Source: a bacterium
GTDB lineage: Bacteria > Patescibacteriota > Minisyncoccia > Phycocordibacterales > UBA9973
DNA: 64,000 bases
Reading direction: 5' to 3'
NCBI GenBank assembly: GCA_037200905.1
Contig: JBBCGN010000001.1
Span: forward strand, 116,795 to 180,794
Shown here: piece after piece, positions 11,572 through 61,661 of the stretch
Position numbering within the stretch: position 1 is the stretch's first letter
Layout of the letters: each line of letters starts with the position of its first letter
Position numbers and translations under genes: made by a program
Notes under the pieces: model-generated
The model's database searches: none
What the model was told of the DNA's origin: nothing
What the model saw: only the letters and a program-made list of their open reading frames with translations

Positions 11572-11632
11572 GGGGACAGTATATATTGAAGATGCCCATA
11601 AGTCAAAACCACTTCATCGTTCAGCTTGGAAA

Positions 11633-11652
11633 TTATCAACAGATTATCAACA
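11633..11652 (+). promoter_or_regulatory. Two tandem DnaA-box-like 9-mers (TTATCAACA x2) upstream of dnaA
   Basis: attatcaacag attatcaacag, about 25 nt upstream of the dnaA -35. The same 9-mer recurs at 13054-13062 (reverse) and 13247-13255. Confidence 0.55.
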
Positions 11653-11674
11653 GAGTTAGTACGGTTTTAAAATT

Positions 11675-11702
11675 TTGACTCGGTAGGGGAATAGTATACT
11701 AT
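11675..11702 (+). promoter_or_regulatory. dnaA promoter (TTGACT-16-TACTAT), giving a leaderless transcript
   Basis: The -10 ends 6 nt before the dnaA ATG at 11709. Confidence 0.5.
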
Positions 11703-11708
11703 AGGGCA

Positions 11709-13052
11709 ATGGATACGAAGCAACTTTGGAAAAACTGCTTGATAGAGATAGAAGCGGGTGTATCTAAAGCGAATTTCAGCACATGGTTCAAGAATACCTC
11801 GATCCTCAAGGAGGATTCGGGTATTGTCTATGTAGGCGTCCCGAACGAGTTCGTCCGAGACTGGCTCAAGAACAAATATCACAAGCTCATCACCAAAACT
11901 ATAGCCGATACGTATGAGAATATGCGCGCGGTGGAGTACGTCATCACTAAAATAGAGGCGATCAAGCAAGATCTCCCGAATACGGGCGAATCCTTTGCGA
12001 ATAAGGAGCTGCCGCTCAAGGATCTGTACATAAATCCGGATGACAATCTCAATGCGCGCTACCGGTTCGATTCTTTCATCGTCGGCGGCTTCAACGAGCT
12101 CGCGTATGCGGCCGGTCAGGCCATCATCGAGTCTCCGGGCACGAAGTAACAACCCGTTTTTCGTCTACGGCGGCACCGGCTTGGGCAAGACCCACCTCCT
12201 GCAGGCCGTAGGGAACTCCATCAAGGAGAAATATCCGAGCAAGAAGGTGCATTATCTCACGCTCGAGAAGTTCGCCACCGATTTCGTGAACTCGCTCCAG
12301 GCGAACAAGGCGAATTCTTTCAAGGAGAAATACCGCAAATACGACCTCCTGATCATCGACGACATCCAGTTCATCGGCAAGATGGAAAAGATCCAGGAAG
12401 AGCTCTTCCATACCTTCAATACCTTCTACGAGAACAACAAGCAGATCATCTTTTCTTCCGACAAGCATCCGAATTACATCCCCGAGCTGGCCGACCGCCT
12501 GAAATCGCGCTTCGCCGCCGGCATGATCGTCGACGTCTCCGAGCCGGAATACGAGTCGCGCCTCGCCATACTGAAGGTGAAGCTCCAAGACATGAATATC
12601 GACCTCGGCCAGGATGTCATCGAGTATGTGGCGAGCGCCATCCAGGGAAATATCAGGGAACTCGAAGCAGCTTGAATACCATAATCATGCAATTCCGCTT
12701 GAAAAATAAGCCTCTTTTGCTCTCCGAGGTCAAAAACCTGCTCAAGAACAATATCCGTCCGAAAAAGAATGTCGCTATCAAGGATGTGGTGAAGATCGTC
12801 AGCGATCATTACAATCTCGACGAGGCATCGATCTATGAGAAGACCCGCAGGAAGGAGATCGTGAAGGCGCGCCAGATCGTCATGTACATCCTGCGCGAGG
12901 ATTTCAACGTATCGTACCCGCTCATCGGCCAGAAGCTCGGCGGCAAGGACCACACCACGGTCATACACTCGTACCTGAAGATAAAGGGGGACATCAAGAA
13001 CGATCCGAACTTGGTGCAGGAGCTGGAACAGATACGGGTGATGTTCAAATAG
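11709..13052 (+). CDS. dnaA: Chromosomal replication initiator DnaA (two apparent frameshifts near 12148 and 12672)
   Basis: Three colinear ORFs: an N-terminal domain, the AAA+ core (NPFFVYGGTGLGKTHLLQA, DLLIIDDIQF, NIRELE) and the C-terminal DNA-binding domain (ARQIVMYILRE...GGKDHTTVIH). The junctions are at gta-a-caac (extra a) and gcagc-tt-gaat (missing t). Confidence 0.9.
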
Positions 13053-13299
13053 CTGTTGATAAGCGGGTAGAAACAATTTATAACCCGACAATAAGCGAAA
13101 TAAAAATGTTTATAACGAATAATAAGAAAATTAAGCTAAGATTAAGAAATAAAAGTTGTGCATACATGGAAAAACTTATCAGTTAGAAACAAAAATAAAA
13201 ATCGCTCTCATATCCATACATAACAATATCAAATCAACTTATCCACTTATCAACAGGAACTAATATCATTAATAGATTATATATATAAGATATACCCAT
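13053..13299 (+). other. oriC-like AT-rich dnaA-dnaN intergenic region
   Basis: 247 bp, strongly AT-rich. DnaA-box-like sites are tgttgataa at 13054-13062, ttatccact at 13239-13247 and ttatcaaca at 13247-13255, plus degenerate boxes. The rpmH|dnaA-dnaN context is classical for an origin. Confidence 0.6.
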
Positions 13300-14397
13300 A
13301 TGAAGCTCGAATGCGAAATCGAAAAAATTAAAGACAGCATCTCTCATGCGGAAAGGATCACGGGCAAGAATCTCACCCTGCCCGTGCTCGGATCGATCCT
13401 CTTCATCGCTTCGAAGAAATCCCTGAAGATCAGGGCGACGAATCTCAACCTCGGCATCGAGATCGAGATTCCGGCGAAAGTGGAGAGGGAAGGGACGCTC
13501 GCCGTATCAGGTTCGGTGCTCGCCGGCATCTTCTCTAATTTCTTCCAGAACGAGACCGTTTCCTTCGAAGAGGACAACGGCAACCTGACCATCAAGACCA
13601 AGAAGAATAAGATCAAGCTCAAGGGCACTCCGCACGAGGATTTTCCGACCATTCCGGTAGTTACCGGCACGAATTTCAGGATGGAGGCCAAGAAGCTCAT
13701 AGACGGCATCAGGTCGGTGTATTACAGCTCTTCCGTGTCGGACATCAAGCCGGAAATATCGAGCGTGTACATCTATTCCGATAACGACGCATTGGTGTTC
13801 GTTTCCACGGACTCTTTCAGGTTGGCGGAGAAGAAGATAAAGATGAAAGGCCTCGATGAGATTCCGGGCATACTGATCCCGTTCAAGAATGTTCCGGAGA
13901 TCATCCGGGTATTCGGAGAGACGGCAGGGGAATTGAAGATCAGCTTCAGCAAGAATCAGATTTCTTTCACGAGCGACAACATCTATCTCACTTCGAGAGT
14001 CATAGACGGAGTCTTTCCCGACTATCGGCAGATCATCCCGAAAGAATCTTCGACCGAAGCGGTGCTCCTGAAGCAGGATCTCTTGAACGCCTTGAAGCTT
14101 TCCAATATATTTTCCGACAAGTTCAACCAGATAAACCTGATCGTGAAGCCGAAAGAGAAGGTCTTCGAGCTCTCTTCCGAGAACAACGATGTGGGAGAGA
14201 ATAAGACTCATGTGGACGCCTCTCTCGAGGGAGAGGACGTCGAGCTCGCGTTCAACTACAAATATTTCCTCGACTGCTTCCAGTCCATCACTACCGACAG
14301 CGTGCTCATAAAGCTCGATCAGGGCGGCAAGCCGATGGTCATATCGGGCGTCTCCGAGAATTCCTTCATTTACCTCATCATGCCGATGAACCGATAG
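13300..14397 (+). CDS. dnaN: DNA polymerase III beta sliding clamp
   Basis: 365-aa intact ORF with three-domain clamp length and sequence style (LKIRATNLNLGIEIEI..., ...YLIMPMN end), directly after dnaA. Confidence 0.9.
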   Translation: MKLECEIEKIKDSISHAERITGKNLTLPVLGSILFIASKKSLKIRATNLNLGIEIEIPAKVEREGTLAVSGSVLAGIFSNFFQNETVSFEEDNGNLTIKTKKNKIKLKGTPHEDFPTIPVVTGTNFRMEAKKLIDGIRSVYYSSSVSDIKPEISSVYIYSDNDALVFVSTDSFRLAEKKIKMKGLDEIPGILIPFKNVPEIIRVFGETAGELKISFSKNQISFTSDNIYLTSRVIDGVFPDYRQIIPKESSTEAVLLKQDLLNALKLSNIFSDKFNQINLIVKPKEKVFELSSENNDVGENKTHVDASLEGEDVELAFNYKYFLDCFQSITTDSVLIKLDQGGKPMVISGVSENSFIYLIMPMNR

Positions 14398-17361: not shown

Positions 17362-18559
17362 ATGGCAATCATTACTGACGAGAAAAGAATCGATGAAATT
17401 CTCTCCCGCGGGCGTTCATGAAGTTTTCACCCAAAGAAGAGCTGAAAAAGCAGCTCATGAGCGGAAAACAGCTCCATTTCAAGCTCGGAACCGACGTCAC
17501 GGGGTCGTTCTTGCACCTCGGGCACTCCGTCATCCACCGCAAATTGCGCGATTTCCAGGAGCTCGGGCACAAAGTCACTCTCATCATCGGCGATTTTACC
17601 ACCCTCGTCGGCGATCACTCTGATAAGGTAGATATGCGCGATGAGACGACGGCCAAAGACATCAGGAACAATGAACGATCATATAAGGAGCAATTCTTTA
17701 AGACAGTCATCAAGGGGCAGACCAGGATCTATCACAACTCAAAGTGGCTCAAAAAGCTCCGCTTCAATGACGTCTTGAATCTTTCGAAACAATTCACCAT
17801 ATCGCAGATGCTTGATCGAGAATCGTTCATGCTCCGCTACAAGGGAGGCAAGCCGATCGGCCCTCGACGAATTCATGTATCCTCTCATGCAAGGCTATGA
17901 TTCCGTGGCCATTAAGTGCGATGTCGAACTCGGCGGCACTGATCAGACATTTAACCTTCTCGCAGGCCGTCATCTCATGCCTTCGTTCGGATTGAAACCC
18001 CAGTGCGCCGTTGCCATGAAGCTACTGACCCGGTTCGGACGGCAGGCCGATGGGCAAGAGCTTGAAGAATTTCATCCCTATCGCTGACAAGCCGAACGAT
18101 ATGTATGGCAAGATCATGTCCATCGTCGACGATGTCATATTCGATTACTTCGAACTGGTGACCCGCGTGCCTATGGATGACATCCGCGATATGAAAGCAA
18201 AAATAGTGGGCGGAGAAAACCCTATGCAGTTCAAGAAAAAACTCGCGCTCGAGATCGTGACCTTTTACCATGGCAAAGAAAAAGCAGCAGAAGCGGAAAA
18301 GAATTTTCACAGTACGTTCCAAAAAGGAGAAATCCCCGAAGATATGATGTCGTTCAAGCTGACCGAGTTCGAATCGACGCTCATGGAAATCCTTACGGCC
18401 GGCGGCGTGGTGTCCTCGAAAGGGGATTTCAGGCGCCTGGTGGAAGAAGGAGCCATCACGAACCTCGACACCGATGAAAAGGTCACCGACGTGCAGTATA
18501 AGCCGGAGAAAGGCATGAAATTCAAGATCGGCAAGCGCCGGTTCGTGAAGATCATATAA
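17362..18559 (+). CDS. tyrS: Tyrosyl-tRNA synthetase with a C-terminal S4-like domain (four apparent 1-nt insertions: 17410-17412, 17424-17427, 17861-17863, 18029-18031)
   Basis: HIGH motif (LHLGH), KMSKS-like motif (PMGKSLKN after frame correction) and a C-terminal S4-like region ([23 protein letters not shown]). The pieces sit in three frames and join at g3, t4, c3 and c3 runs. Confidence 0.85.
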
Positions 18560-18567
18560 AAGAAAAA

Positions 18568-18589
18568 GAGCCCCTCTCGGGGCTCTTTT
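18568..18589. terminator. Bidirectional intrinsic terminator (tyrS / small acidic ORF)
   Basis: gagcccc-tctc-ggggctc stem flanked by an A-run and a T-run. Confidence 0.75.
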
Positions 18590-18593
18590 CGTA

Positions 18594-18755
18594 TTAGCTG
18601 AAACTGGAATCAGGATCCTCCTCGAACTCGTCGTCATCGAGCGTTCCCGGCTCCAGATCCGGATCTTCGAGAGGGTCGAACGCTTCGTCTTCAGCATCTT
18701 CGTCGCTGACGCGGAACGTCTGCTCCTCCATCAATATGTCATCATCGTAACCCAT
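18594..18755 (-). CDS. Candidate small, extremely acidic protein (53 aa)
   Basis: Manual translation gives MGYDDDILMEEQTFRVSDEDAEDEAFDPLEDPDLEPGTLDDDEFEEDPDSSFS. Third-position GC matches the host genes and the terminator lies immediately downstream. It is absent from the ORF track because it is shorter than 60 aa. Confidence 0.4.
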   Translation of the reverse strand: MGYDDDILMEEQTFRVSDEDAEDEAFDPLEDPDLEPGTLDDDEFEEDPDSSFS

Positions 18756-19464: not shown

Positions 19465-20001
19465 TTATTCGGCGTTGGTATAGACGTCCTGCACGTCGTC
19501 GTTCTCTTCGAGCTCGTTCACCAATTTCTCCAGCAGTCCGAGGTCGGTGTCGGAGAGGGGAATGGTAGAAGTGGGAATCCAGATCAAGCCTTCCGGCATC
19601 ATCTCTTTCTTGAAGGCCCAGGCCACCGCGCCGATGCCACTGAGCGCCGTGCCGTTTTCTGACAGGATATGCTTCACTTCCTGCGCCGTCCTGTTCTTCG
19701 AATCGGTCAGCGTCTCCACAATGATTCCCACGCCGCCCGGTCCGTAGGCTTCGTAAGTGATAGAGTCCATGTGCGCCGACGGTTCGGCGGCTTTCCTGAT
19801 GGCCCGTTCGATATTTTCCGAAGGCATGTTCACTTTCTTGGCCTTCTCGATGGCGGCGCGCAGGCCCGGAGATTCTTTCCCGCCCGAGAGCCGTGCTTCG
19901 ACTGCGATGAAACGCACGAGCTTCGAGAATATCTTGCTCTTCTTCGAGTCGGTAATAGCCTTCTTGTGTTTTATCTGCGCCCATTTATTGTGTCCTGACA
20001 T
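19465..20001 (-). CDS. yebC: YebC/PmpR-family transcriptional regulator
   Basis: MSGHNKWAQIKHKKAITDSKKSKIFSKL... is the canonical YebC N-terminus. 178 aa (shorter than the ~240 aa typical of YebC), no internal stop. Confidence 0.9.
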   Translation of the reverse strand: MSGHNKWAQIKHKKAITDSKKSKIFSKLVRFIAVEARLSGGKESPGLRAAIEKAKKVNMPSENIERAIRKAAEPSAHMDSITYEAYGPGGVGIIVETLTDSKNRTAQEVKHILSENGTALSGIGAVAWAFKKEMMPEGLIWIPTSTIPLSDTDLGLLEKLVNELEENDDVQDVYTNAE

Positions 20002-20087
20002 ATTTTTATCTTAAGAGGTTTTTAAGCAAAGAGCAAATTATTTCTTTACATATCATCATTCTATGATAGACTTTTGAAAAATTTAGT

Positions 20088-20495
20088 ATGTTTAACGCTC
20101 TTGCTTATTATGGCTGGAAAGTCAAAGATCAAGTTGATAATAATGAACTTTGCCAATTAAATCACATCCAACTTATTGAAATCTCGAAAATTCTAAAAGA
20201 CGAAAATGAAAAATGGTCAATTGAGAATTTGCTCACATCTTTCAAAAGCGATTTCGATAAAACCCTTTGCAATGTAGAAATAATGGAATTTGTGCTGAAT
20301 TACCCAGCGAGCATTAAGAGCTTGTGGAAAAATAAGAGGATCTATTTTCTTGGCACTAGATTTGCATCCCCAAAGGGAAACTTGCATATGTTTCCTCTTA
20401 TTTCCACCAGAAACAATTTCAATTTCTCTGCGGGTTATCGATGTGCTAACGACTTACACTGCAAAGATTCTTGTGATTTTATTGCTGTTTTTTAA
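20088..20495 (+). CDS. Hypothetical protein in an AT-rich islet
   Basis: 135-aa ORF, the only long ORF in a visibly AT-rich 0.5-kb segment between yebC and ruvC-side genes, on the opposite strand to its neighbours. No recognisable motif. Confidence 0.4.
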   Translation: MFNALAYYGWKVKDQVDNNELCQLNHIQLIEISKILKDENEKWSIENLLTSFKSDFDKTLCNVEIMEFVLNYPASIKSLWKNKRIYFLGTRFASPKGNLHMFPLISTRNNFNFSAGYRCANDLHCKDSCDFIAVF

Positions 20496-20526
20496 AAACG
20501 AAGGGAAAATCCTCTTCGTTTTTTAT

Positions 20527-21566
20527 TTACAATAAAGTATTCTGTTCTCTTTTAAAATCAAATCCGAGATGGTCGTAGGCTTTCTTGGTAGCCACTCGGC
20601 CGCGGGCGGTGCGTTCGAGCAGGCCTAATTGGATCAAATACGGCTCGATGACTTCCTCTACCGTAGCCTCTTCCTCGCTCATGGCTGCGGCCATGGTCTT
20701 GAGCCCTACCGGCCCGCCGTCGAATTTCTCTATCAATATTTCCAGGAATTTCCTGTCGGAAGAGTTCAAGCCGATGTCGTCGATGGCCAGCATGTTGAGG
20801 GCATCTTTCACCGTCTGCTTGTCCATATTCTTCTTGTTCACTTGGGCGAAGTCGCGGACGCGTTTCAGGAAGTAGTTCGCCGTGCGAGGAGTGAAGCGGC
20901 TGCGCTTGGCAATCTCTTCCAGGGCTTCGGTCTCGAGTTCCGTCTCCAAGAGCTTGCTCGAGCGCTTTACGATCTCGGCGATCTCTTCATTGGTATAGAA
21001 CTCGAGGCGGAAGACGCCGCCGGAGAAGCGTGAGCGGAGCGGGGAGGACACGAGCGCGACGCGGGTGGTGGCGGCGATCAGGGTGAACGGCGGCAGCTCG
21101 AGCTGGATAGTGCGAGCGGAAGGGCCTTTGCCGATAATGATGTCCAAAACACCCGACTCCATGGCGGGGTAGAGGATTTCCTCTACCATCTTGTTCAGGC
21201 GGTGGATCTCATCGATAAAGACGATGTCGCCGGGGGCGAGGTTGGTGAGGATCGAGGCCAGGTCGCCGACTTTCTCGATAGCCGGCCCGGAAGTGATCTT
21301 CATCTGCTTGCCCGTCTCCTTGGCTATGAGGTGTGCCAGGGTGGTCTTGCCGAGGCCCGGAGGGCCGTAAAAGAGGATATGCTCGGGTATCTGGCCGCGC
21401 TCTTCGGCGGCCCGGAGCAGGATTTTAACGTTGTCTTTTATATGTTTTTGGCCGATGTACTCGTCCCACCGGCCCGGGCGGAGGGTTTGGTCCAAAAGGA
21501 GTCCTCTCCCAAGGCGGTCTTGGAATCTCCTTTCTTTTCAATTTCGTTCTGAGTATCGCTTGACAT
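20527..21566 (-). CDS. ruvB: Holliday junction helicase RuvB (probable N-terminal extension via one frameshift at 21494-21497)
   Basis: The AAA+ core has GPPGLGKTTLA and VFIDEIHR. The track ORF starts at a TTG (21495). An ATG at 21566 opens MSSDTQNEIEKKGDSKTALGEDSF, which joins LDQTLRPGRWDEYIGQ if the t4 run gains 1 nt. Confidence 0.9.
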
Positions 21567-21588
21567 TAATTTTATATTATGCTATACT
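21560..21588 (+). promoter_or_regulatory. Strong sigma70-type promoter (TTGACA-17-TATACT with TG extension) with no plus-strand ORF downstream
   Basis: ttgaca at 21560-21565 and tgctatact at 21580-21588. The -35 overlaps the proposed ruvB ATG on the other strand. Confidence 0.55.
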
Positions 21589-21594
21589 GTATTT

Positions 21595-21877
21595 ATAGGG
21601 GATTATACACAGCGTATCAACACCCTACCAACAGATATGTGCACATTATAGCATTTACGCCTCGGTTGCGTATTTTCCTATATAGTACAATTACACACGT
21701 GAGACAAGAGGTTCGGTTTTCGCAAGAAGGCGCTAATCTCTAAGCAATCAGCCATCGGTTATACAAATTCGCAAAGGACGTTCTGGTACTATTTATAGGC
21801 GTCTGGGGTTATCCTTAAGAATTTGTTACTCTCGGGGCTCAGCCCTGAAAGGATTGTTTAGAGATTAGTGCTTTTTT
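21595..21877 (+). ncRNA. Candidate structured ncRNA of about 280 nt, class unknown
   Basis: Bounded by the promoter above and a 20-bp stem (21730-21749 with 21852-21871; 18 Watson-Crick and 2 GU pairs) followed by T6. There are further stems: uauagggga pairs with uuuuccuaua, and tacgc-ctcggtt-gcgta forms a hairpin. No ORF exceeds 14 codons. I see no RNase P, SRP, tmRNA or 6S hallmarks. Confidence 0.4.
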
Positions 21878-21885
21878 AGTTTCTG

Positions 21886-23217
21886 TTACTTAAACAGCTT
21901 CTTGATTGCCTGAATGTTAGGCATGAAAATGTGTTTCCTCTTTTTAGAGACTTGAACAAGTAACCCTTTATCCACTAAGTAAACTAAGTCATTGTATGCT
22001 GTCTGGGCGTGAAATCCATGCTTCGATTGATGAATAGTGACTTCTGTGGAAGTGTAATTTTTATTATCCAAAAAATATTGCAATAAAGCAATTTGCCTCG
22101 GATTATAGTCATCAAACTTATACGCAACCAGTTTTAGGTTTTCTGCCTCTTGCATTTTCTCATTAAAATATTCTAGGAATTTATTAATTGCAGTTTTAAA
22201 AGAATCAGCTATATAAGAAATAAAATAAGTTAAGTCGTTTTCATTTTCTGAGTAAATGAAGACGTTATCATATTTTTTTCTTGAATGCACGATTGCTCTA
22301 GAAATGGCCAAATATTGAACTAACCAATAATCATGCTTTAATAAATACCAGTGAAAAACAGCTCGAGCAGTTCGGCCATTTCCGTCAACGAAAGGATGCA
22401 AATATGCTATCCAAAAGTGTAGTATTATTGCTTTGACTACAGGATGGATAAAATCACCATCTTCTTCAACTTCAGGCTTATTAGCAAATTCAATCAGCTT
22501 TTTTAATTCACTATGCATATCTTTTTCTACTGGTGGCGTATGTACAATTTCGTTCGTAACAGGGTCTTTTACAACAATCTCGTCAGCATCGGTCCTAAAT
22601 CTCCCTTGATCATGATTATCGTCAAATGTTTTATTGGTGACAATTGTTTGAATTTCAAGTAACATATCTTCGCTTAAATCCAAATTCTTCCATTCCGTTA
22701 ATTTCTGCATCATTTCGTAACTGTTCACTATCATTTGTTCATCCTTTGTCCTTGCTGGCCTTTGTGATCTGAGCAATTCCTTCGCAACCTTTCTTGATGT
22801 GTTTGCTCCTTCAATTTGACTGGTTGCAATTGCTTCTTCAGTCAATCCTGCAATAATAAATTTATTTTTCTGTGTATCAGAAAGTTTAGTTGTTTTTATA
22901 AAGCTTGCAGCATGAGTATCAATGAAATTTAATTTCTGGTAAAGAGTATTAACGACAGCAAATTCAAATAATTTTCCAGTTGTTGATTTAACTGGTGTCC
23001 TTTGAGAGAGAGAACTTCTTCGAAGTTTTAAATATGCCCAAGCTTCTTCTTTTGTGAAGCCGGCTGGTATGGTTTGATACTTAAAAGTATCCCAATAAAG
23101 GTAATTTTTCTGTGCTTTATGTAACAGCTCTTCCAGAGCGGGGGAATTGGCTGCTCTTTTTATTAAGTCATCACTTATAAGCTCTATCCAAGCTGTCGGT
23201 TTTGGTATTTTTGCCAT
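21886..23217 (-). CDS. fic: Fic/DOC-family protein (class II, N-terminal inhibitory helix) with a C-terminal winged-helix-like region
   Basis: Fic motif HPFVDGNGRTAR and inhibitory motif TSQIEG ((S/T)xxxE(G/N)). 443 aa, intact, in an AT-rich island. Confidence 0.9.
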   Translation of the reverse strand: MAKIPKPTAWIELISDDLIKRAANSPALEELLHKAQKNYLYWDTFKYQTIPAGFTKEEAWAYLKLRRSSLSQRTPVKSTTGKLFEFAVVNTLYQKLNFIDTHAASFIKTTKLSDTQKNKFIIAGLTEEAIATSQIEGANTSRKVAKELLRSQRPARTKDEQMIVNSYEMMQKLTEWKNLDLSEDMLLEIQTIVTNKTFDDNHDQGRFRTDADEIVVKDPVTNEIVHTPPVEKDMHSELKKLIEFANKPEVEEDGDFIHPVVKAIILHFWIAYLHPFVDGNGRTARAVFHWYLLKHDYWLVQYLAISRAIVHSRKKYDNVFIYSENENDLTYFISYIADSFKTAINKFLEYFNEKMQEAENLKLVAYKFDDYNPRQIALLQYFLDNKNYTSTEVTIHQSKHGFHAQTAYNDLVYLVDKGLLVQVSKKRKHIFMPNIQAIKKLFK

Positions 23218-23340
23218 ACTGTTAATTTTAACATAATTAATAGTAAAATAGCAAGTACTATTTTAAGACCAAAAAATAAGGCTATAATTACAAATTATTA
23301 ATTTTTTCTAAATTAGAAGCTAATTAACAGTAAGTAGCTT

Positions 23341-25034
23341 TTATTCCTCGTTCAAGTCCACGACGGGATTGAACTTCGGCGATAGAGGTAATGCCGTTCA
23401 ATATCTTGACCGCGCCGTCCTGGCGCATGGTGAGGATGCCTTGGGCCCGGGCGGCTTTCTTGATCTCGCGCTCGCTCGGATTTTCGGTGATGATCTTCTC
23501 GATTTCCGCGTCGGTCTTGATAGCCTCGAATATGCCGATGCGGCCCCGGTAGCCGGTGCCGTTGCACTTGTCGCAGCCGACGGGGGAAAATATCTTGAAC
23601 GGCGCGTTGGGATTGATATTGTATGTGGCCAGATCCTTGCCCTCGTCCTTCATGCTCTGCACCGCGAGCATCAGGGTCTTCTTTTCTGCTTCGGCCAATT
23701 CCTTCTCCTCCTTGCAGTCGGGGCAGAGCACTCGCACCAGGCGCTGGGCGATGGAGAGCGACAGGGCCGAAACGAGGATCTTCGGATTGACCGACAGGTC
23801 GATGAGGCGGGGGATGGCCCCGGCGGCGTTGTTGGTGTGGAGGGTAGAGAGCACTAGGTGGCCGGGTGAGCGAAGACTGCACAGCGATCTCCGCCGTCTC
23901 GGCGTCGCGGATCTCTCCCACCATGATCACGTCCGGGTCCTGGCGGACGGCGGAGCGCAGGCCTTCGGGGAAGGTGTAGTTGTCTTCGGCCTGGGTCTGG
24001 GTAATGCCTTCGAGGTGGTACTCGATCGGGTCTTCGATGGTGATGATATTGATCTCCGTGGAGTAGATCTTGCGGATGAAGGCGTAGAGGGTGGTGGTCT
24101 TGCCGGAGCCGGTCGGGGCCGGTCACCAGGATCAGGCCGTTCGGCTTGGCGATCTCCTTCTCGATGATGGCCATCAGTACGGAGTCGATGCCGAGGTCGG
24201 TGAACTTCACCTGGATGGACTTCGGGTCCAGTATTCGCATGACGATGGCTTCGCCGTAGGCGCCCGGGATGAGCGAGGTGCGGATGCTGATCTCTTCGGC
24301 GTCTTCCATGATGCTGAAGCGGCCGTCCCTGGGCCACGTTCGAGGTGATCTTCATGCCGGAGAGGAGCTTGATGCGGGAATTGAGCAGGTGGTAGAGATG
24401 GGCGTCGAAGAACATCACGTCCTGGAGCACACCGTCGAGGCGCAGGCGCAGGCGGATCTGGTCCTTTTCCGGCTCGATGTGGATGTCGGAAGCCTTGATG
24501 GCGATGGCGCCGGCAAGGATGATCTCGAGCATGCGGGAGATCTTGTGCACGTCGGAGACGAGCGAGTCCTTGATGAGAGCCTCGATGTCCTGCATCTTGT
24601 GGATGTCCTTGGCCGTTTCCTTGAGCACTTCGCCGCTGATATCGAGGCCGCCCACTTTCGTGTTCTCCGGCGAGCGAGATTTCCTTGTAGCGGTCCCAGA
24701 CTTTCTCGAGCGAGGCCATGGAGGCCATGTAGAACGTCGGCACGAGGGTCTTCCGCTCCGCCGCGTCCTTCAGGCGGGAGATGATGTCCGGGTCGGGCGT
24801 GCGCACGGCGATGAAGATGTTCTTGCCGGAGAGCTTGAACGGCGCCACGCGCCATTCGCGGGCCTCGCTCTCGGGGATGATGCGCAGGGCCTCGTTGTCG
24901 ACGCCGAGGCGGGACAAGTCGACGTAGGGCAGCTTGTATTTCGACGCGGCGAGCACCTCTACGAGCTGTTCCTCCTCTGCCTTGCGCAGCTCTTCGAGCT
25001 GCCGTTCCGGTTTTTCTTCATCAAATTGAGCCAT
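23341..25034 (-). CDS. pilB: GspE/PilB-family type II/IV secretion (type IV pilus assembly) ATPase, with five apparent 1-nt insertions (23365-23367, 23864-23866, 24115-24118, 24327-24329, 24656-24658)
   Basis: After frame correction: Walker A ([16 protein letters not shown]), the Asp box, Walker B (VIMVGEIRD), the His box ([11 protein letters not shown]) and a tetracysteine (CPDC...CDKCNGTGY). The stop at 23341 assumes the c3-run correction; the uncorrected ORF ends at 23324. Confidence 0.85.
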
Positions 25035-25090
25035 TGTACTGACAGTATATCGTATCCAAGTGCGGAATAATAGTGGCCCGCACGCGCTCA

Positions 25091-25099
25091 TGTTAATAT
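25091..25099 (+). promoter_or_regulatory. Extended -10 promoter (TGtTAATAT) for tsaE, giving a leaderless transcript
   Basis: The -10 ends 6 nt before the ATG at 25106. Confidence 0.45.
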
Positions 25100-29178: not shown

Positions 29179-29251
29179 GCGCCCGTAGCTCAGTCGGTAG
29201 AGCAGCTCCCTTTTAAGGAGATGGTCGAAGGTTCGATTCCTTCCGGGCGCA
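29179..29251 (+). tRNA. tRNA-Lys (anticodon UUU), no encoded CCA
   Basis: Manual cloverleaf: acceptor gcgcccg/cgggcgc, D arm gctc-agtcggta-gagc, anticodon loop cTTTTaa, T arm gaagg-ttcgatt-ccttc. There is one G-A mismatch at 27-43. Confidence 0.85.
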
Positions 29252-39275: not shown

Positions 39276-39845
39276 CTACTTTCCTCCGAGGATCTTGAGA
39301 GCTTCACGCACTTTAGCGTTGGTGGCCAGTCCTGCTGGCACCTTTTTGAGGGCGTCGCGAGCTTCGTTCTGCGAATAGCCGAGAGACTTGAGGGCTTCGA
39401 GGGCGTCGAGCTCTCCCTGGAGGGAAGCGCCGCCGGATTCCTCCTTGCCGACTTTGTCGCGGAGCTCGATGACGATCTTTTCCGCCGTCTTCCTGCCGAT
39501 GCCGGAGATCTTCGTCAGGTATGCCGTGTCGCCGGAAGCGATAGCCTGCTGCAAGGTATCGATAGTGGCAACGCCGAGTATCACTAATCCTGATTTCGGG
39601 CCGATGCCGGAGACGCCGATGAGCATCTCGAAGAATTGCAGTTCCTCGTATTCGAAGAATCCATAGAGGTCGAATGAATCTTCTCGCACATGCGTGTGTA
39701 TCCAGAGCAGGATGCTGTCGCCGGCTTTTTGTGCCTTCACGAGCGTCTCGGGGGAGACGCTGACCTTGTATCCGACGCCGCCGGCTTCGACGATGAGGAA
39801 CTTGTCTGTTTTAAGGGTTATTTTACCGTTTATGCTGCCGATCAT
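39276..39845 (-). CDS. ruvA: Holliday junction DNA helicase subunit RuvA
   Basis: MIGSINGKITLKTDKFLIVEAGGVGYKV, HhH motifs (GVSGIGPKSGLVIL and ISGIGRKTAEKIVIEL) and the C-terminal domain III. Confidence 0.9.
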   Translation of the reverse strand: MIGSINGKITLKTDKFLIVEAGGVGYKVSVSPETLVKAQKAGDSILLWIHTHVREDSFDLYGFFEYEELQFFEMLIGVSGIGPKSGLVILGVATIDTLQQAIASGDTAYLTKISGIGRKTAEKIVIELRDKVGKEESGGASLQGELDALEALKSLGYSQNEARDALKKVPAGLATNAKVREALKILGGK

Positions 39846-51271: not shown

Positions 51272-54200
51272 TTATGAGTGCTTCGGTGCGGCGGGATGCA
51301 CGCTGAACGGCACGAGGCTCGGAACGGTGAGGTTCAGGCTCGGGCACATGATGTTGTTCACCGCGGTCTGGGTCGTCAGGTAGAAGATGCCCGTCGGAGC
51401 GGCGATGTGCCATGGGTCGAGGATAGCGTCCTTGTGCGCGAGCTGGAAGGCCTTGAGGGCGTCTTCCGTCGGCTGGTCGAAGATGCCGCTCGTCGCGAGA
51501 GTCGTGTGCGTATAATCGTTCAAGAATTTCTGGAGCTTTGCTACCGCATCGGCGTCGTTGTCATAGCCCTTGCGCAGGAACTTGTCCACGTAGATGCCGC
51601 AGGTATTCTCTGCTCCGAGGACCGCGCCGTTCGTGGTCGAAGCGCCGAGGACTCGTCCGCCTCCCCCCGCCGCCGGAGGAGTGGCTGCCCTTGCGGGAGC
51701 TGCCGCCGGAGTGATGCTTCGCGGGCTTCGGATCCTGCACGCACTGGCCGTCCTCTTCATGCTCGTCGCTGTCGCATTCGAGCGGAGGCGTATCGTCGCC
51801 CGGCGGCGTGACTTCGTTGTCGACGCACTCGCCCTCTACTTCGTGCTGATCATCGCCGCATGTTGTCGGCTCGTCCGGAGTCTGCGGCTGTTCCGTTTCT
51901 GCGGGCAGGCATGGCAGCGCTTCGCCGAAGTTGCTTGCAGTATTGTCTTCGCAGAGTTCGGGTACAGAAGGATTCTGTTCGTTATCGCTCTGGCATGGGC
52001 CGGTCTCCTGTATGCCTGGATCGGTCTCTTCGTTCGGACATGCATCGCTTGGAGGCGTATTGTCATCGCCATTGCCGCCGTTGCCCGGAGGAATCACCTC
52101 TTCCCCGGTCGGTACGTTGAATCCGATGCAGTGGTAGGTCTCGCCCGCTGCCACTGTCGGGATGGCGTCATAGTTGTCATAGTGGACGATGTCCGTCGAG
52201 CAGTAGAATTCTGCCGAGACGCTCTGGTTGCGATTGTTGCCGGTGAACGGGATGTAGCCGTCCTGGAAGACTTCGCGCACCCAGACCAGGCTGCCGGCAG
52301 GAATCTCGGTCGTGCCGCCGAATGTCGTCCATGGCGCGCCCGCCTCCTCGGCTTCATCGCCGGGATTGGTGTAATCCTCGAGGTCCGTGCCCGGGCGCCA
52401 CTGGAATGTCCACGGCGCGAGTTCGCAGTCAGGATGAGCGGCGAGGAATGCCGTCGCGGTATTCCCGTCGATGCTCGTCACTGCGTCGCCGTTGCCCCAG
52501 TTCGGCAGGTCGCTTTCGGCCGGACAGATGATCTTCACGGCGTCGATGGTCGCGGTATCTGCCGGCTCCTCAGGCTCTTCCGGAGCGGCATCGACGCACT
52601 CGAGGGTCACGGTGACCACGAGGTCGTTGAAGTCGTTGTCGAAGCCCGCATCGCTCGTCTTCAAGTCTTCGAAGGCGAGGACATAGGTATTGCTTGCCGG
52701 ATTGTAGACCACTGCGTGATCTTGGCCGGAATTGTTGAGCGAGTTCTCCGTGGCCGCGGTCGCCTTGAAGGTATTGCCCTCGAAGGTCTTGATGGCGAAG
52801 CCGAGGGTCGTTGCCCCTTCAGGCACAGTCACATCGAACGGTCCGGCTGATGCGAGCGGCGTCGAGCCGAAGCCGGTGATAGTCGCAGTCTTGAAGACCG
52901 GCACGAAGTTCGCAGTGTCCCCGTCCACGTAGTAGCCGAAGACCTGGTTGCGTCCGGCAAAGCTGTTCACGAAGGCTGCATCAATGTGGATCTCCGAGCC
53001 CGGCGTGACGTTCCAGGTCTGGAACTGCTTCTGGTCGGTCTGTGCGTCGAGAGTGTATGGAGTGGTATCGAGGATTTCCTGCAAGTCCTGTTCCGCGCCG
53101 GGAGCCGGGTTCACCGTTTCTGCCGTGCTGTCGCCGAGAGCGCTCGGTACCGGGCAGGAGTTTACCACTTCTACCGGAGGCTGCTCGTCCTCGCACTTCT
53201 CGTTCCAGACGATGACGTACTCCGTAGCCTGCAAGTCAGTGAAGTCCGGTGCGGTCAATGCTGGTACTTTCGAAGCGGCATCTGCGAATGAGACGGTGCT
53301 CGTGGTGTAACCGACGAGAGCGAAATCGTGATCGGCGTCGCAGGTATTTCCGACTGCGCTGTTGATGACTTCGTGCGCCGCGTAATCAGCTCCTGCATCC
53401 GCATCGATGAACGATGCTTCGTATGCAGGGTCGCCGTACCAGCCGTTCGCATCGAGGGTAAACGGCACATTCGCGTATGATCCCTGCGGTACGCCGTCGT
53501 ACGTCGTGAGCATCGCAAATGATGCGTTGTTGGTATTTGCTGCTGTGGCATGCACGCCGTCGACGTATTTCGCGATGTGCACGCTGACTTTCGTCGGAGG
53601 CACTACGATCTCGCCGCACTCGTGGTTGTGAACGATGACAAATTTGTTCGCAGTAAGGTTGGTGAAGCTCGGAACGGTTGCGGTAACCGGAGCCGCTACT
53701 GCTGCCTCGTACGTGTCGCCTACCGAGTAGCCGACAAATGCGAATGGCGTGCCGGCATCGCATGTCGCGCCGACGACGCTGTCGATGTGCTCGTGGGTAG
53801 CATAGTTCGCGCCAGCGTAGAATTCGAGCGTCTGTGCCTCATACGGAGTAGGTGTCAGGCTGCCGACAGTGCTTAGTGTATACGGATCAGTGCCTGTGAG
53901 ACTGCCTGGGAACGCTTCGTTCGTGAAGCTGTAGTCAGCCTGCATGGTGAATGTCGCGCTGTCAGCGTTCTCTGCTGTCGCATGCGTGCCATCAATGAAC
54001 TTGGCGATGGTCACGTGGACGTGTGTCGGAGGTACGACGACTTCGTTGTCGATAGTTATCTTGTACGGATTTTCGGCATCGTTGCTCCAGGCACTGATAT
54101 TGCCATTGACATCCTTTGCACGGACCTGGACGTAGTAATCGCCTTCTGGCGTATTTGGAGTCGGGATGTTCGTATCGGTCAACCAGCCGCTTGAGTACGC

Positions 54201-57200
54201 GAGAGCCGTGTATGCCGCATCAGTGAAAGCTTGGTACTGGTACGTGATAGGGGCATCGCCTGTCGATGCTGACCAATCGACTTCCGTAGCCGCTGCTGTC
54301 GTAAGGACTGCGCCGTTTACAGGGCTCGTGAATGCTGGAACACTGAGAGGATTTTGTACCACTGGGGTTGTCGTCGTCTCACTTACTTCGTCTGAGATTG
54401 ATTCAGGCGAACCGTGCGATACGCCTCGGAAGAAGTACGGAGTGCCAGGAGTAAGGCCAGTAACTACGACTGTATGCGAAGTAACTTTTGTGACTGAATC
54501 GGTTTCGCTAGTTGAAGATTGGTAACCATAGTTTGGCGTACCGGCAGTATGTGCATCAATATCTGAGACTGGTGAAGTGCCGTATACCACTCGTGAAGTT
54601 GCAGGGTGGTCAGTCGTCCAAGTGACGGTGATGGTCGTATCTGTTGGCGTTGCCGCATCAGCTGAAGTAATGACTGGAGCTGGAAGGTCGCTAATAGTAA
54701 ATACTCCAGCAGTGAAGTTGATTGTGTAGTTAGTGCCAGCTGAAAGCGTACCTTGATTTATCGCATATGTATTTATTGTCTCACCTGCTACGCGAGCGAG
54801 TGCGCCAGTAAAGTTGTTGCCTGCGATAAGCGCCGGAGCAGTGTACGTCAACGCTGGGTCAATGTCGCCAACTGTTTTACTCTTGTTGTCTGCGGTGACT
54901 GATACCGTCGCTGGACTGATAACAAGTGAACCAGTTGTAGAACCAGTGTAGTTTATATCAACGATAGTTGCTTCTACTGCATATGTGCCAGCATTTGTCG
55001 GAGCAGTTGCCGAACCGTTATATGTAACTGTTGTAGTAAGGCCTGATGGAGTTGTTGTAACAGTCGCAGCATGAGTATTACCATCATATGTCGCAGTTAA
55101 ATCAGAAAGTGAGATTGTTGCAGAAGTTGTACCGACAATAACTGTGCGAATAACTTGTATTGCATGATTTCCATGAGCATCTACCGCATCGTAATTGATA
55201 TGGTATGTGCCGACTGGAGTTGTCGGAGTGACAGTGTCTCCTGTTACTGTTACTGCTACAGAGCCATCAACGAGGTCAGTTGCTGTCGCACCTTCATCAG
55301 GGTAACCGATTCCGTATGCAACATTTATATTTGCATCGCCAGCAAGTGTAATTGTCGGAGCAGTATTATCTACGATTTGGAATGTCGTTCCATTAGCACT
55401 TGTAAGATAGTTTGCTGTCGCTGTGTATGTTGCAGATGCGTTTGCTATACCAGTGTTTGTATTGTTTGTGTAATCTACTGCAACTGCTTCACTCAGACCA
55501 TTTACGCCTGTGACATTTGCTGTACATGGAGTAAGTGCAGAGCCAGTGTAGTTTGCTGTCGCCGGGCAAGAGATAATTGTATCTGTAGGTGCTTTTGCGA
55601 TCACAAGAGTGTCACCTGCAGAACCTGTGTAGTTTATATCATTGATTATTGCAACAACTGGGTAACTTCCCGCTTCGGTAGGAACCGTTGAGGAACCGTT
55701 ATAAGTGACATTCACAGTGAGTCCAAGCGGAACAGTAGAAGTCGTAACTGCTTTCGGCGTGCCGTCGTACGTCGCAGCAGTAGCGCCGATCGTTACGGTT
55801 GCTGTCGCTGAAGTGATCTGATCATGAACGGTCGAGCTTGCGTTGTTATAGTTTCCAGTGACATCGGTAAATATCCAAGCATCAGCTGGATAATCGCCTG
55901 CCGCTGTGTGGGTCGTGCCTGAAAGATCGAGGCCGGAAAGCGATTCAGCAAGTACGCCTGTTGCCGTACCTGTCGCAGTGTGAGCTGCCGTGTCATAAGC
56001 GGTATTGTAAGAATTTACGACGATAGTTGCATTAGCTTTATTTATTGTTATAGCGACATCGCCCGATTGTTCAGCGTAGTTCGGATTCGAGAATATCCAG
56101 TGCGCATTGCCTCCAGGAGCGTTCGTATATGAAGCGCCGAGAGTCAAACCTGTCAGAGTGCCTTCTACGCCAGTACATGAACCAGTTGCGCCGTGCACTG
56201 CGCCGTCATATGCATGGTTGTATCCGGTGATAGTACAGATAGCCGTACCGGAATCGATAGAATCATCGACTGTGCCATTTGTAGAGTTATAGTTTCCGTT
56301 ACCGTCAAATGTCCACGCATCGCCGTTAAATGTGCCGGCTACGGTATGCGTCGTGCCGCCGAGGTGGAGCAAGCTATCGAGGTTAGCAGGAATTGTTTCT
56401 ACGCCACTTGCAGTACCAACAGCCGTGTGAGGGTTGCCGTCATATGTGACATGGTACGCAGTGACTGAGATGTTTGCATCAGCTTTCGCAATAACGAAAT
56501 CTTGTTCGTCGACGCCGGAATAATTTGGATCAGTAATAGTTGCTACCGCATTATATGTGCCTGCATTTACCGGAGCATCCGGTGAGCCGTTGTAAGTAAT
56601 CGTGTAGTCCAAGCCCTCTGGAACTGTCGTTGCAGTTGCAGACTGGGCATTGCCATCGTACGTGTGAGTAAGATCAGAGAGCGTAATTGTCGCAGCGGCT
56701 GCCGTTATAACGCCGGTATTGTCTGCAACCAAGGTGACGTCGTAATCATCGCCGACGAATCCGTCATTTACCGTGTAATCAGTAACTGTGAGCGTCTTCG
56801 TTATACCGACGCTTGCATCCGCATATTCTTGAACGCGGCCAGTAACCGTATCCAAGCCTTGCAGGCCGTCTACAGTTGGAGTTTCATCAGAAGCGACAGT
56901 ACCGTCGTAGACTTTCGTATCAGTAACGGCAGTGATGGTCAAAGGTGCAGCGGTGATATTTGCAGTAGTTGAAGGCTGGGTCAGCGTATAGTTTACAGCG
57001 TCAGCACCAGAGAGTGTGAAGCCCAAGACAGATATTGTCTTGCCATCGCCAACATCTTTCGTATCAAATGTGCCTGCTGCAGTCCCGATGATAGTGACAT
57101 CGTCTCCATCGACTACTCCGACAAGGGCTGCGCCAGAGGTATCAAGAGTTGCATCTGTTGTAGCATCGTACGTTTTATTGCTTGCGGTTACTCCTGTGAC

Positions 57201-60200: not shown

Positions 60201-61661
60201 ACTGCCATAAACAGATGAAGTTGGATTTGAACCTGTGACAGTTATGACAGGAGCAGTTGTATCAATAGTTATTGAAAGATTTCCAGAAGCAGCTGAGACG
60301 TTTCCTGCTGGGTCAGTCTGTTTGGTATTCATAGTTGCATGAATACCTTGAGACAAAGCTGAAGAAGTTATAGTGACAGTTGAAGAAGCGCAGAGGCCTG
60401 TGCCGACAGAAGTAGTGTTATCGAATAAAGTAACTGTGCTTCCTGTGACACAAGAAATTGTAAAAGTAGGAGTCGTATCAGAAGTAATATTGTCGGTAGA
60501 AGATGAACCTAAATCGGTCGCAGCTGTCATGTCCGGAGTTCCAGGAGCAGCGTCAGGTGTTACATCAGCTGTGTAAGAAACCTTTGCCTGAATCTGATCC
60601 ACACGAAACTCATCACCCGCACTGGTAGTTAAAGCAGTTAATCTTATTCTAAAGTTTGCATTTGTAAATTCAGCTGGTGACCATGTTCGTCCCCATATAT
60701 CAGATGTTCCACCGAAAATAACAGTTTTGTCTGCAGCGCCAGTGGTAAATAATGTTCCTGTATTTTTTACCGTTGTCCAATGCACACCATTATCGTATGA
60801 AAGTGAAATGTCTATAGTTCTTGGGTCTGGTCTGTTTCCTTCAAGAGCTACCTGAATACCATTAATAGTAGCTCCTGTAGGAACGCTTAAGCCAAAAGTT
60901 GTGTAATCAATAGAATCGCCTGCACTATTAAAAACTGCATACTGGTCATCAGAAGAAGCTGCATTAGTAGGGGTATCTACATTAGTATTATTTGCTGTAC
61001 CACCTTCTGCACTCCAACCACCGTCGAAGGTAGCAGTAATAGTTTTATCAGACGTAACGTTCGTAAAAGTATATGAATTTACACGTCCTTGAGATGCAGG
61101 AACAGTAACGTCAGAAACTACATATCCAGCAGATGGAACAATAGAAAGGGTTTGATTAGCACCATTAGAAACTGACGGGTTTGCAGGTGTTATCGTTCCT
61201 CCTACGCCAGGAGTAGTAGTAATTGTGTGAGGGGAAGCAACAGTGATAGCATTAGTTAATGTTAGAGTATTGCTATTTGAACTACCATTACAATCATCTG
61301 CCGAGTTCATTATGAAATATGCGTTGTATATTCCTGGTGTAGTTGGGGCTGTGATAGTAAAACTTTCAGTAGTAGAACCAGAGAAAGAGGTATTGTCATC
61401 GGTATTAGCACAAGTCGTTGAACCAGGAGCAGAATTATTAATTCTCCATTTTGTACCTTGCCAATCAGTATTAGAACTCCAACTTCCAGTTACAGCAGCT
61501 GTAATTGAGGCACCAGGTTGTACCGTTACAGTACTTAAACCGTTTAAGGTTGCTGAAGTAACAGTCGTTGCTGCCAACGCTGTTGAAGCATTAGAGAATA
61601 AAAATCCGACCACAAGGAGAACTGGTAATACAAAACGAAAAGCTGATGTAAGTTTCTTCAT
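51272..61661 (-). CDS. Giant secreted surface protein/adhesin (about 3460 aa) with a C-terminal peptidoglycan-binding domain (one frame break in the c6 run at 51663-51668)
   Basis: 3366-aa uninterrupted ORF with a signal peptide (LFSNASTALAATT). It has dozens of Ig-like and MBG-type repeats (xTVTADxKxKxYGxxDPxLTY, YDGxxHxAT), HYR/DUF5011-like modules, an FN3-like module and a DUF4114-like module (NDFNDLVVTVT). Removing one G joins it to ORF 51272..51760, which is PG_binding_1-like (AVAKLQKFLN...GIFDQPTEDALKAFQ). Confidence 0.85.

Follow-up and report, generated by a model that had tools for sequence, protein, structure and literature searches.

Introduction

Several structured non-coding RNAs (ncRNAs) of bacteria, such as raiA, OLE and ROOL, were found by comparative genomics and are catalogued in Rfam as orphans. 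Covariance models often miss divergent members of another class, the 6S RNAs. 6S RNA is defined by its structure more than by its sequence, its features being a closing stem, a large single-stranded central bubble flanked by G–C pairs and a terminal stem-loop (PMC4064990). Here, we analyse region 21560–21877 on the plus strand of a 64-kb window (the whole stretch of DNA studied, 64,000 nucleotides of contig JBBCGN010000001.1 in assembly GCA_037200905.1), which probably holds the gene and the control region of a structured ncRNA lying head-to-head with ruvB. To our knowledge, the candidate phyla radiation (CPR, Patescibacteria), whose genomes are tiny, has almost no characterised regulatory RNA.

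The element can be set beside three kinds of described RNA. Like 6S RNA (ssrS, RF00013), it is predicted to be a stable RNA of ~150–200 nucleotides (nt) with a long closing stem formed by its 5′ and 3′ ends, an irregular apical stem and its own promoter or promoters; unlike 6S RNA, it has no match to RF00013 and carries a closed four-way junction instead of the large single-stranded bubble. With the orphan ncRNAs it shares conservation with covariation, a stand-alone arrangement with promoter and intrinsic terminator, and a wide yet lineage-restricted spread. It differs from them in that it matches none of the 4227 Rfam 15 models, was found, as sampled, only in Paceibacteria-type CPR bacteria, is invariantly head-to-head with ruvB and has a DnaA-box array in its control region. 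The third comparison is with the RNAs of type I and type III toxin–antitoxin systems: in this genome only, a small non-coding transcript would converge with a toxin-type gene, fic, but the RNA does not co-occur with fic elsewhere, there is neither antisense overlap nor a repeat array, and the Fic protein is self-inhibited.

DnaA boxes follow the consensus TTATnCACA and cluster at dnaA and oriC. Clusters outside oriC regulate promoters, as at E. coli dnaA, nrd and uvrB/DARS1, and clusters of this kind are known in B. subtilis. Like these, the locus has several TTATnCACA-type 9-mers in one orientation, spaced by about one helical turn over promoter and initial transcribed regions, and dnaA of this genome is likewise bordered by that variant of the motif. 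Unlike them, the predicted array lies between the face-to-face promoters of a repair gene and a structured RNA gene, and we know of no described case of such an arrangement.

Materials and methods

The region under study was 21560–21877 on the plus strand; its control signals and its folded domain were compared with relatives separately. Relatives were fetched through close RuvB homologues (loci L004–L009 and L130–L132, n = 9), which together with the window gave ten loci. L130–L132 were left out of the construction of covariance model R1. A metagenome scan with a 20-base RNA pattern taken from the conserved core returned at least 120 loci, and many of the loci come from groundwater of the Hainich or Rifle-type sites; alignment A1 comprises 108 distinct 3′ domains; all counts over 100, 108 or 119 loci or sequences given below hold among the pattern matches listed. 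A scan of a genome collection for Fic returned L002 and L003 as the only relatives, and the window was compared with these. Stems P1, P2 and P7 were taken from RNAalifold, and stems P3, P4 and P5 were added by inspection. RuvA was sought with an E. coli RuvA query, which serves for detection only.

Results

A four-way junction conserved as RNA

The folded part of the region is a domain of seven helical elements, each placed from the columns of A1 together with the single-sequence fold. All lie on the plus strand, and stem numbers are independent of the promoter numbers used further on.

21724–21877, plus strand: structured RNA domain, a four-way junction
21724–21749 with 21852–21877, plus strand: stem P1, the closing stem, U-tract included
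21750–53 with 21757–60, plus strand: stem P2
21763–70 with 21819–26, plus strand: stem P3
21773 and 21775–78 with 21812–16, plus strand: stem P4
21780–86 with 21803–09, plus strand: stem P5
21787–21802, plus strand: P6, a variable hairpin at the tip of the long arm
21829–38 with 21842–51, plus strand: stem P7

Pairing was found in 96.2% of the 6154 cells of A1 (57 pairs in 108 sequences), with compensatory double changes at 18 of the 57 pairs (227 cells). None of 500 shuffles matched the real alignment on any of five measures, and sliding the partners by one to three columns lowered pairing to 39–55%. The pairs of hairpin P6, which lie outside the tested model, head the ranking by mutual information with average product correction. 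The minimum-energy fold of the window copy alone is the same four-way junction, with a fold z-score of −7.6 for 21724–21877 as against −5.0 for the 286 nt of 21595–21880. The earlier note on this DNA had left it to be settled whether the stems covary and the region aligns among relatives; the stems covary strongly and the relatives align easily.

The strand is also indicated. G–U cells in A1 number 1136 and A–C cells 22, the plus strand folds with a minimum free energy of −63.9 kcal/mol as compared with −44.8 for the minus strand, and it is on the plus strand that the stem is followed by the T-run; together these identify the plus strand as the RNA strand. The RNA thus runs antisense to the direction of ruvB and fic.

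The closing stem P1, of 24–26 base pairs (bp), is nearly invariant and runs into the U-tract, and the covariation-supported model leaves only 2+2 unpaired nucleotides at the junction. There are 60 invariant columns in A1, and the wobbles G29–U146 and G36–U44 and a tandem U–G/G–U in stem P5 are invariant. In pairwise nucleotide comparisons, copies of the RNA domain are on average 78% identical and those of the adjoining ruvB core 68%, and the RNA sequence is nearly the same in this host of 58% GC as in the relatives' copies with a region of 30–41% GC (the RNA region of the window has 42%). Columns 50 and 120 (window 21765 and 21831) pair a purine of stem P3 with a bulged pyrimidine of stem P7, covarying as A–U or G–C in 97% of the sequences, which could reflect either a signature of two clades or a tertiary contact that spans the junction.

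From the alignment, we take the mature functional part to be the four-way junction of ~155 nt at 21724–21877. The earlier proposal of a structured RNA of ~280 nt thus holds for a structured plus-strand RNA bounded by promoter and terminator, but the structured part is only ~155 nt. Two further helices of that proposal, a 9-bp 5′ stem and a tacgc/gcgta hairpin, do form in the single-sequence fold but are not conserved and are specific to the window; the tacgc hairpin sits in an insertion of ~11 nt that is missing from most relatives.

The 3′ end

The domain ends in an inverted repeat whose arms, 21724–21749 and 21852–21877, lie 102 nt apart with T6 at the end. The long stem and T-run near the fic stop codon, reported earlier, are there as described, with 8 nt to the stop.

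21852–21877, plus strand: predicted intrinsic terminator, made of the 3′ strand of stem P1 and T6

The A-rich 5′ flank AAGAAGG pairs with the U-tract, columns 11–14 with 161–164, in at least 97% of the sequences. Read on the minus strand, the closing stem is a hairpin followed by CCUUCUU, and it may also terminate the convergent gene (fic here, whose stop codon at 21886–21888 on the minus strand lies 8 nt past the T-run, and pilB in relatives). At L130, the stem lacks a U-run and a separate canonical terminator follows; stem and terminator are therefore separable there, and stem P1 is a structural part of the RNA and not just a terminator. Both the σ70-type −35/−10 arrangement with 17-nt spacing and the G+C-containing hairpin with U-tract are kept in relatives.

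Comparison with known RNA families

As the earlier note had it, no known family matches the RNA. At the gathering score, Rfam 15 matched the whole window just once, with a tRNA at 29179; relaxing the threshold to E ≤ 10 gave three matches in the region, all at chance level, and four unrelated and non-recurrent ones in 11 homologous loci. RF00013 (6S) gave no match at E ≤ 10 in the window or in 11 homologues. The structure has a closing stem and an apical arm; of the elements around its central four-way junction, P7 is a proven hairpin and stem P2 is invariant. ARAGORN found no tRNA or tmRNA gene in 21400–22000. A keyword search of the literature, which lay mostly outside subscription papers and is hence weak evidence of absence, found no description of this RNA. 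It is very likely that the locus encodes a conserved stand-alone structured RNA of a new family, unrelated to fic.

Linkage to ruvB and distribution

In all ten RuvB-sampled loci (10/10, the window counted), the homologous region immediately precedes ruvB and is divergently oriented to it. The gap upstream of ruvB in the fetched loci is ~290–400 nt long and holds no called gene; nhmmer aligned the gaps of L004–L009 with window 21560–21877 at E values of 1e-28 to 1e-36, and covariance model R1 scored the window copy at 167 bits and L130–L132, at the same position, at 154–173 bits. In the metagenomic matches with room for it, ruvB is adjacent and divergent in 119 of 119. The RNA occurs once per locus and once in the 64-kb window, where neither nhmmer nor blastn found a paralogue; a miniature mobile element with terminal inverted repeats was rejected on this single copy and the fixed ruvB site. 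The same RNA pattern gave no match in a scan of viral contigs. RuvB homologues at 87–92% identity carry the names Candidatus Paceibacterota, Nomurabacteria, Parcubacteria and Minisyncoccia, which places the host among the CPR bacteria. The RNA is in all probability a core feature of Paceibacteria-type CPR bacteria, locked head-to-head with ruvB, as judged from these loci.

On the other side of the RNA, the neighbours change. The gene beyond it is pilB in L004 and L006, a 542-amino-acid (aa) protein in L005, small open reading frames (ORFs) in L007 and an ornithine-decarboxylase-type gene in L008 and L009; among the matches, downstream genes vary likewise (pilB, fic, DapB-like and SuhB-like genes and one for a 219-aa protein of no assigned family). 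The downstream gene is convergent in 80 of 100 loci, the rest being from differing families, and no consistent co-directional downstream gene was found across those 100. In about half of the loci, a convergent pilB has its end at a distance of 0–100 nt from the T-run.

Insertions recur in the slot between pilB and the RNA, a hotspot occupied in relatives by DapB-like, SuhB-like and ornithine-decarboxylase-type genes and by genes for proteins of 219, 432 and 542 aa; DapB-like and SuhB-like are names that we assume from reading the sequences. A further observation is that metagenome contigs L013, L045, L046, L052, L067 and others end inside the RNA, as would be expected if near-identity between co-occurring strains breaks assemblies, as with rRNA genes.

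A probable control region in the 5′ half

Upstream of the folded domain lie four blocks of putative control signals.

21560–21588, plus strand: promoter P1, with TTGACA at 21560–21565, a 17-nt spacer, TG at 21580–21581 and TATACT at 21583–21588; predicted start ~21595
21603–21645, plus strand: four DnaA-box-like 9-mers arrayed in the same orientation at intervals of 11–12 nt, namely TTATACACA at 21603, GTATCAACA at 21614, CTACCAACA at 21625 and ATGTGCACA at 21637
21645–21653, minus strand: extended −10 element TGCTATAAT (plus strand ATTATAGCA), a candidate ruvB promoter directed toward ruvB and face-to-face with promoter P1
21683–21691, plus strand: proximal promoter P2, TAGTACAAT, with the −10 hexamer TACAAT at 21686–21691; predicted start ~21698, giving an RNA of ~180 nt

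Promoter P1, which the earlier note had described as TTGACA-17-TATACT with a TG extension, is found just there; with a score of 11/12, it outranks every other promoter-like site in 20000–24000. Its pattern in relatives, CTTGACATT followed by a 17-nt spacer and TGCTATAcT, is present in 93 of 108 upstream regions (counted as TTGACA-17-TGnTAnnnT), the −10 varying as TAnnnT. Boxes of the relatives read TTTATCAACAc-ag-TATCAACAt-agc-TATaCACA, and at least two boxes are present in 97 of 108; relatives have three TATCAACA/TATaCACA boxes and the window has four. The ATTATAGCA block is nearly invariant and present in 89 of 108; it lies 75 nt from TTGACA in most and 85 nt in the window. Promoter P2, whose motif TAGTAnAAT occurs in 98 of 108 with the TAnAAT pattern typical of −10 hexamers, is placed either 27–28 or 37–39 nt past this block, and the two classes differ by one helical turn. 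An (A/T)GAG motif follows the −10 of promoter P2 by 6–9 nt in most relatives, and at least 8 nt separate promoter P2 from the closing stem in every case.

RNAalifold gave no consensus pair on either strand of the 5′ leader in the sequences with uniform spacing. We read the 5′ half as DNA signals because of the −10-type variation, the helical phasing and the minimum spacer. The overlap of the 5′ third with the ruvB upstream region, pointed out in the earlier note, is therefore retained as a shared promoter and operator region and not as part of an RNA fold, since no RNA helices are conserved in it.

The spacers between promoter P2 and the domain show a further feature. In 20 of 100 distinct spacers, a short hairpin with a T-run (AGAGGTTTAGGCCTTTTTTGTTTT type) stands just before the closing stem (L105, L089, L101, L007 and L103 are examples); other spacers hold a G+C-rich hairpin without a T-run. 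The short hairpin looks like a collapsed version of the outer part of the closing stem and may be a 5′ cap, an attenuator or a remnant.

The absence of any ORF longer than 14 codons, asserted earlier, did not survive inspection, as a 54-codon ATG ORF is present at 21579–21743 on the plus strand; an in-frame GTG at 21639 leaves ~34 codons. A small protein from this ORF was considered and rejected. Its start lies within promoter P1, upstream of the predicted transcription start, and its counterpart in L005 stops within a few codons, so that it is not a credible gene.

Probable DnaA boxes elsewhere in the window

There are five copies of TATCAACA in the 64 kb: two in tandem at 11634 and 11645 upstream of dnaA, one at 13054 after dnaA, one at 13248 before dnaN and one in the control region. 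Relatives carry the same motif pairs upstream of dnaA and dnaN. The boxes are most likely DnaA sites, to judge from their sequence and placement.

At 11630–11710, tandem TTATCAACA boxes 11 nt apart stand just upstream of dnaA, and one box follows the dnaA stop; at 13050–13300, tandem TTATCCAC/TTATCAACA boxes are followed by a very AT-rich tract before dnaN. The dnaA–dnaN spacer at 13.05–13.30 kb is likely oriC, and the two stretches together are likely to make up oriC and the autoregulatory region of dnaA. A secondary replication origin in the control region was considered unlikely, since the tandem boxes and the AT-rich tract sit between dnaA and dnaN. The promoter-like site of dnaA ends ~6 nt before its ATG, which hints at a leaderless mRNA.

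The 5′ end of ruvB and its surroundings

21438–21566, minus strand: true 5′ end of ruvB, in which frame 0 reads MSSDTQNEIEKKGDSKTALGEDSF and then shifts into LDQTLRP...

The ruvB ATG, at 21566–21564 on the minus strand, overlaps the −35 TTGACA of promoter P1, as the real N-terminus MSSDTQNEIEKKGDSKTALGEDSF begins at 21566. A 1-nt deletion in the T-run at ~21497–21500 (TTTT, where homologues need TTTTT) interrupts the frame; homologous RuvB proteins read MSS...DSFLDQTLRP without a break, and the ORF called in the window is 42 aa. The break is most likely an assembly error, judging by these homologues. A TATTAT-7 nt-ATG arrangement precedes ruvB.

Four genes of the window, ruvB (21495–21566, minus strand), pilB/T2SSE (23324–25091, minus strand), tyrS (17400–18700) and dnaA (11700–13060), each appear as two or three separate ORFs, and the pattern suggests homopolymer indel errors in the assembly and not pseudogenes. 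ruvA, at 39276–39845 on the minus strand, is unlinked to ruvB, the local order being ruvB – (orf135) – yebC – ruvC. Its detection rules out the idea that the RNA is a Holliday-junction mimic standing in for a missing RuvA. Between ruvB and yebC, an AT-rich islet (19950–20550, 30–35% GC) holds a 135-aa ORF on the plus strand at 20088–20495, for which Pfam gave no match, and relatives also hold variable small genes there. Farther along, a single ORF of 3366 aa occupies 51561–61661 on the minus strand; giant proteins are often seen in CPR genomes.

fic as a later insertion

21886–23217, minus strand: fic, 443 aa (Pfam Fic, E 3.4e-18)

The protein has the Fic motifs TSQIEG, which is N-terminal and inhibitory, and HPFVDGNGRTAR; we take it to be of class II, auto-inhibited, following the established Fic classification. 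The gene sits in an AT-rich insertion of ~1.4 kb (21886–23323, 27–37% GC, with flanks of ~58% GC) between pilB and the RNA. A Fic protein entry is on record in GCA_037975565.1. The closest Fic relative, L002, is 67% identical and comes from a Candidatus Nomurabacteria genome with a different context; L003 is 39% identical.

fic is absent from the RNA site in all nine RuvB-sampled relatives (L004–L009 and L130–L132), and the RNA, when sought in L002 and L003, was absent from both. As relatives have the RNA without fic and the Fic relatives lack the RNA, the RNA belongs with ruvB. Hence the placement of the RNA at the edge of the fic island, as the earlier note had it, gives way to a place on the conserved ruvB side, and co-occurrence with fic in other genomes, looked for through both RuvB and Fic relatives, was not found. 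By the same comparison, fic is a later insertion and not part of the RNA unit.

Discussion

We put the probability at about 0.8 that the locus comprises a structured ncRNA gene head-to-head with ruvB, together with its control region, which is the best overall explanation of the conserved four-way junction, its covariation and its fixed position. Several points weigh against it. All homologues belong to one clade, their RuvB proteins being 82–96% identical to that of the window, and kinship among the A1 sequences inflates the shuffle statistics. The search pattern fixed 20 bases, all in stems P1 and P2, which inflates the apparent conservation there. Stem P2 and the inner 13 bp of stem P1 never vary and so are unproven by covariation, as they are invariant in part through the fixation by the pattern; stem P2 nevertheless has four invariant, three variable and four complementary invariant bases and looks like a real hairpin. 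The fixed linkage may only reflect the overlap of promoter P1 with the ruvB start codon, which leaves no neutral insertion site between the RNA and ruvB. If the hairpin and T-run found in the spacers of ~20% of relatives terminate transcription, the statement that promoter P2 drives the domain is too simple. Finally, transcription starts, the 3′ end and abundance are all predictions from sequence.

A mechanism that would fit the preferred reading has the following steps. Two tandem σ70-type promoters would direct transcripts of ~283 nt (promoter P1) and ~180 nt (promoter P2), both ending at 21877. Promoter P1 and the minus-strand TGCTATAAT element would face each other ~30 bp apart, with DnaA boxes over both start regions, so that DnaA occupancy and interference between convergent promoters could couple the output of the RNA and of ruvB; promoter P2 would lie outside the array. 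Whether DnaA boxes do control the locus in this manner is, on the motifs, an even bet. The RNA itself would act in trans as a stable protein-binding scaffold or decoy, a role that we put forward tentatively, on the model of the fold, at somewhat less than even odds. A base-pairing small RNA, a riboswitch and a fic antitoxin are unlikely because the most conserved parts are helices, wobbles and junction nucleotides and there is no consistent downstream gene.

Among known functions, 6S RNA is the most attractive class. The RNA would then be the lineage's divergent 6S-type RNA, binding σ70 holoenzyme as a mimic of an open promoter and being released by synthesis of a product RNA templated on the 5′ side of the junction. 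The 24-bp closing stem, the wobble-rich irregular arm P3–P6, the short P2 and P7 beside the centre, the length of ~155–180 nt and the stand-alone arrangement with tandem promoters all agree with it, as does the definition of 6S RNA by structure more than sequence (PMC4064990), and a 13-nt stretch could be single-stranded given that stem P2 never varies. Against this, RF00013 had no match at E ≤ 10 in the window and 11 homologues, the junction is closed with 2+2 unpaired nucleotides and no large bubble, P7 is a proven hairpin and the 4-3-4 pattern of stem P2 looks like a real one, and we regard a 6S-type function as improbable. Hardly more probable is that the locus acts mainly in cis on ruvB, transcription from promoter P1 running antisense over the ruvB start and promoter, with promoter interference or a brief antisense overlap as the outcome, and the 3′ domain serving as a stabiliser and a bidirectional terminator that insulates ruvB from read-through out of pilB or fic. 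The overlap of the P1 −35 element with the ruvB ATG would suit this device, as would the arrangement of promoter P1 and TGCTATAAT, which face each other across ~30 bp that contain the box array; among the matches listed, the RNA and ruvB are never separated and about half have the end of the convergent gene 0–100 nt from the stem, and on the opposite strand the A-rich flank reads as a weak U-tract. However, an interference or terminator device needs no four-way junction, 60 invariant columns, wobbles or covarying inner hairpins, stem and terminator are separate in L130, and the conserved promoter P2 starts past the region antisense to ruvB. Roles in cis and in trans could coexist.

The other two explanations are far less probable. 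A purely DNA-level or coding element (a cluster of DnaA boxes, or a secondary origin, that forms a cruciform; the inverted repeats of a mobile element; or a small coding gene) would explain the 26-nt inverted repeat and the 54-codon ORF, and it does fit the 5′ half, whose DnaA-box-like array and AT-rich promoter blocks are genuine DNA signals and show helical phasing (boxes 11–12 nt apart, block spacings in the 27–28 and 37–39 nt classes). It fails on the folded domain: 1136 G–U against 22 A–C cells is an RNA signature, the inner hairpins covary, the element is a single copy at a fixed site with a plus-strand T-run after the stem, the ORF begins before the point where transcription is predicted to start and stops early in L005, and the likely oriC is at dnaA–dnaN; we therefore hold it to be very improbable. 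Still more remote is the earlier suggestion of an antitoxin or regulatory RNA for fic, or of an ncRNA carried by the AT-rich island, which drew on the RNA being adjacent and convergent to fic with 8 nt from T-run to stop codon, and to which its intermediate GC content of 42% might be added. Nine of nine RuvB-sampled relatives have the RNA without fic, and L002 and L003 lack it; the slot in relatives holds pilB or assorted genes, there is no overlap with the fic coding sequence and there are no repeats, and Fic has its own inhibitory helix motif (TSQIEG), so that no separate antitoxin is needed.

Under the preferred reading of a stand-alone RNA gene head-to-head with ruvB, the RNA is likely to be important and is probably an abundant component of the cell, given an identity above that of the RuvB core, more than 100 distinct metagenomic sequences and apparent tandem consensus promoters. 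The tempting toxin–antitoxin reading of a fic-adjacent RNA is corrected, and the RNA instead marks a recurrent gene-insertion hotspot, here taken by fic. As a new RNA family, it would be usable for annotating thousands of uncultured genomes, and its compact four-way junction with invariant wobble pairs would be a target for structural biology. The locus would also offer an example in which face-to-face promoters under DnaA-box control connect a repair gene with an RNA gene. More speculatively, and with low probability, the RNA could be a CPR-specific riboregulator that ties either recombination and repair or global transcription to the status of replication initiation, which the DnaA-box array would read. 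It would do so either as a four-way-junction decoy for a junction- or duplex-binding protein of the Ruv pathway or as a functional analogue of 6S RNA with a new structure. If this were true, its physical interlock with the start codon of ruvB would belong to the mechanism and not be an accident of synteny.

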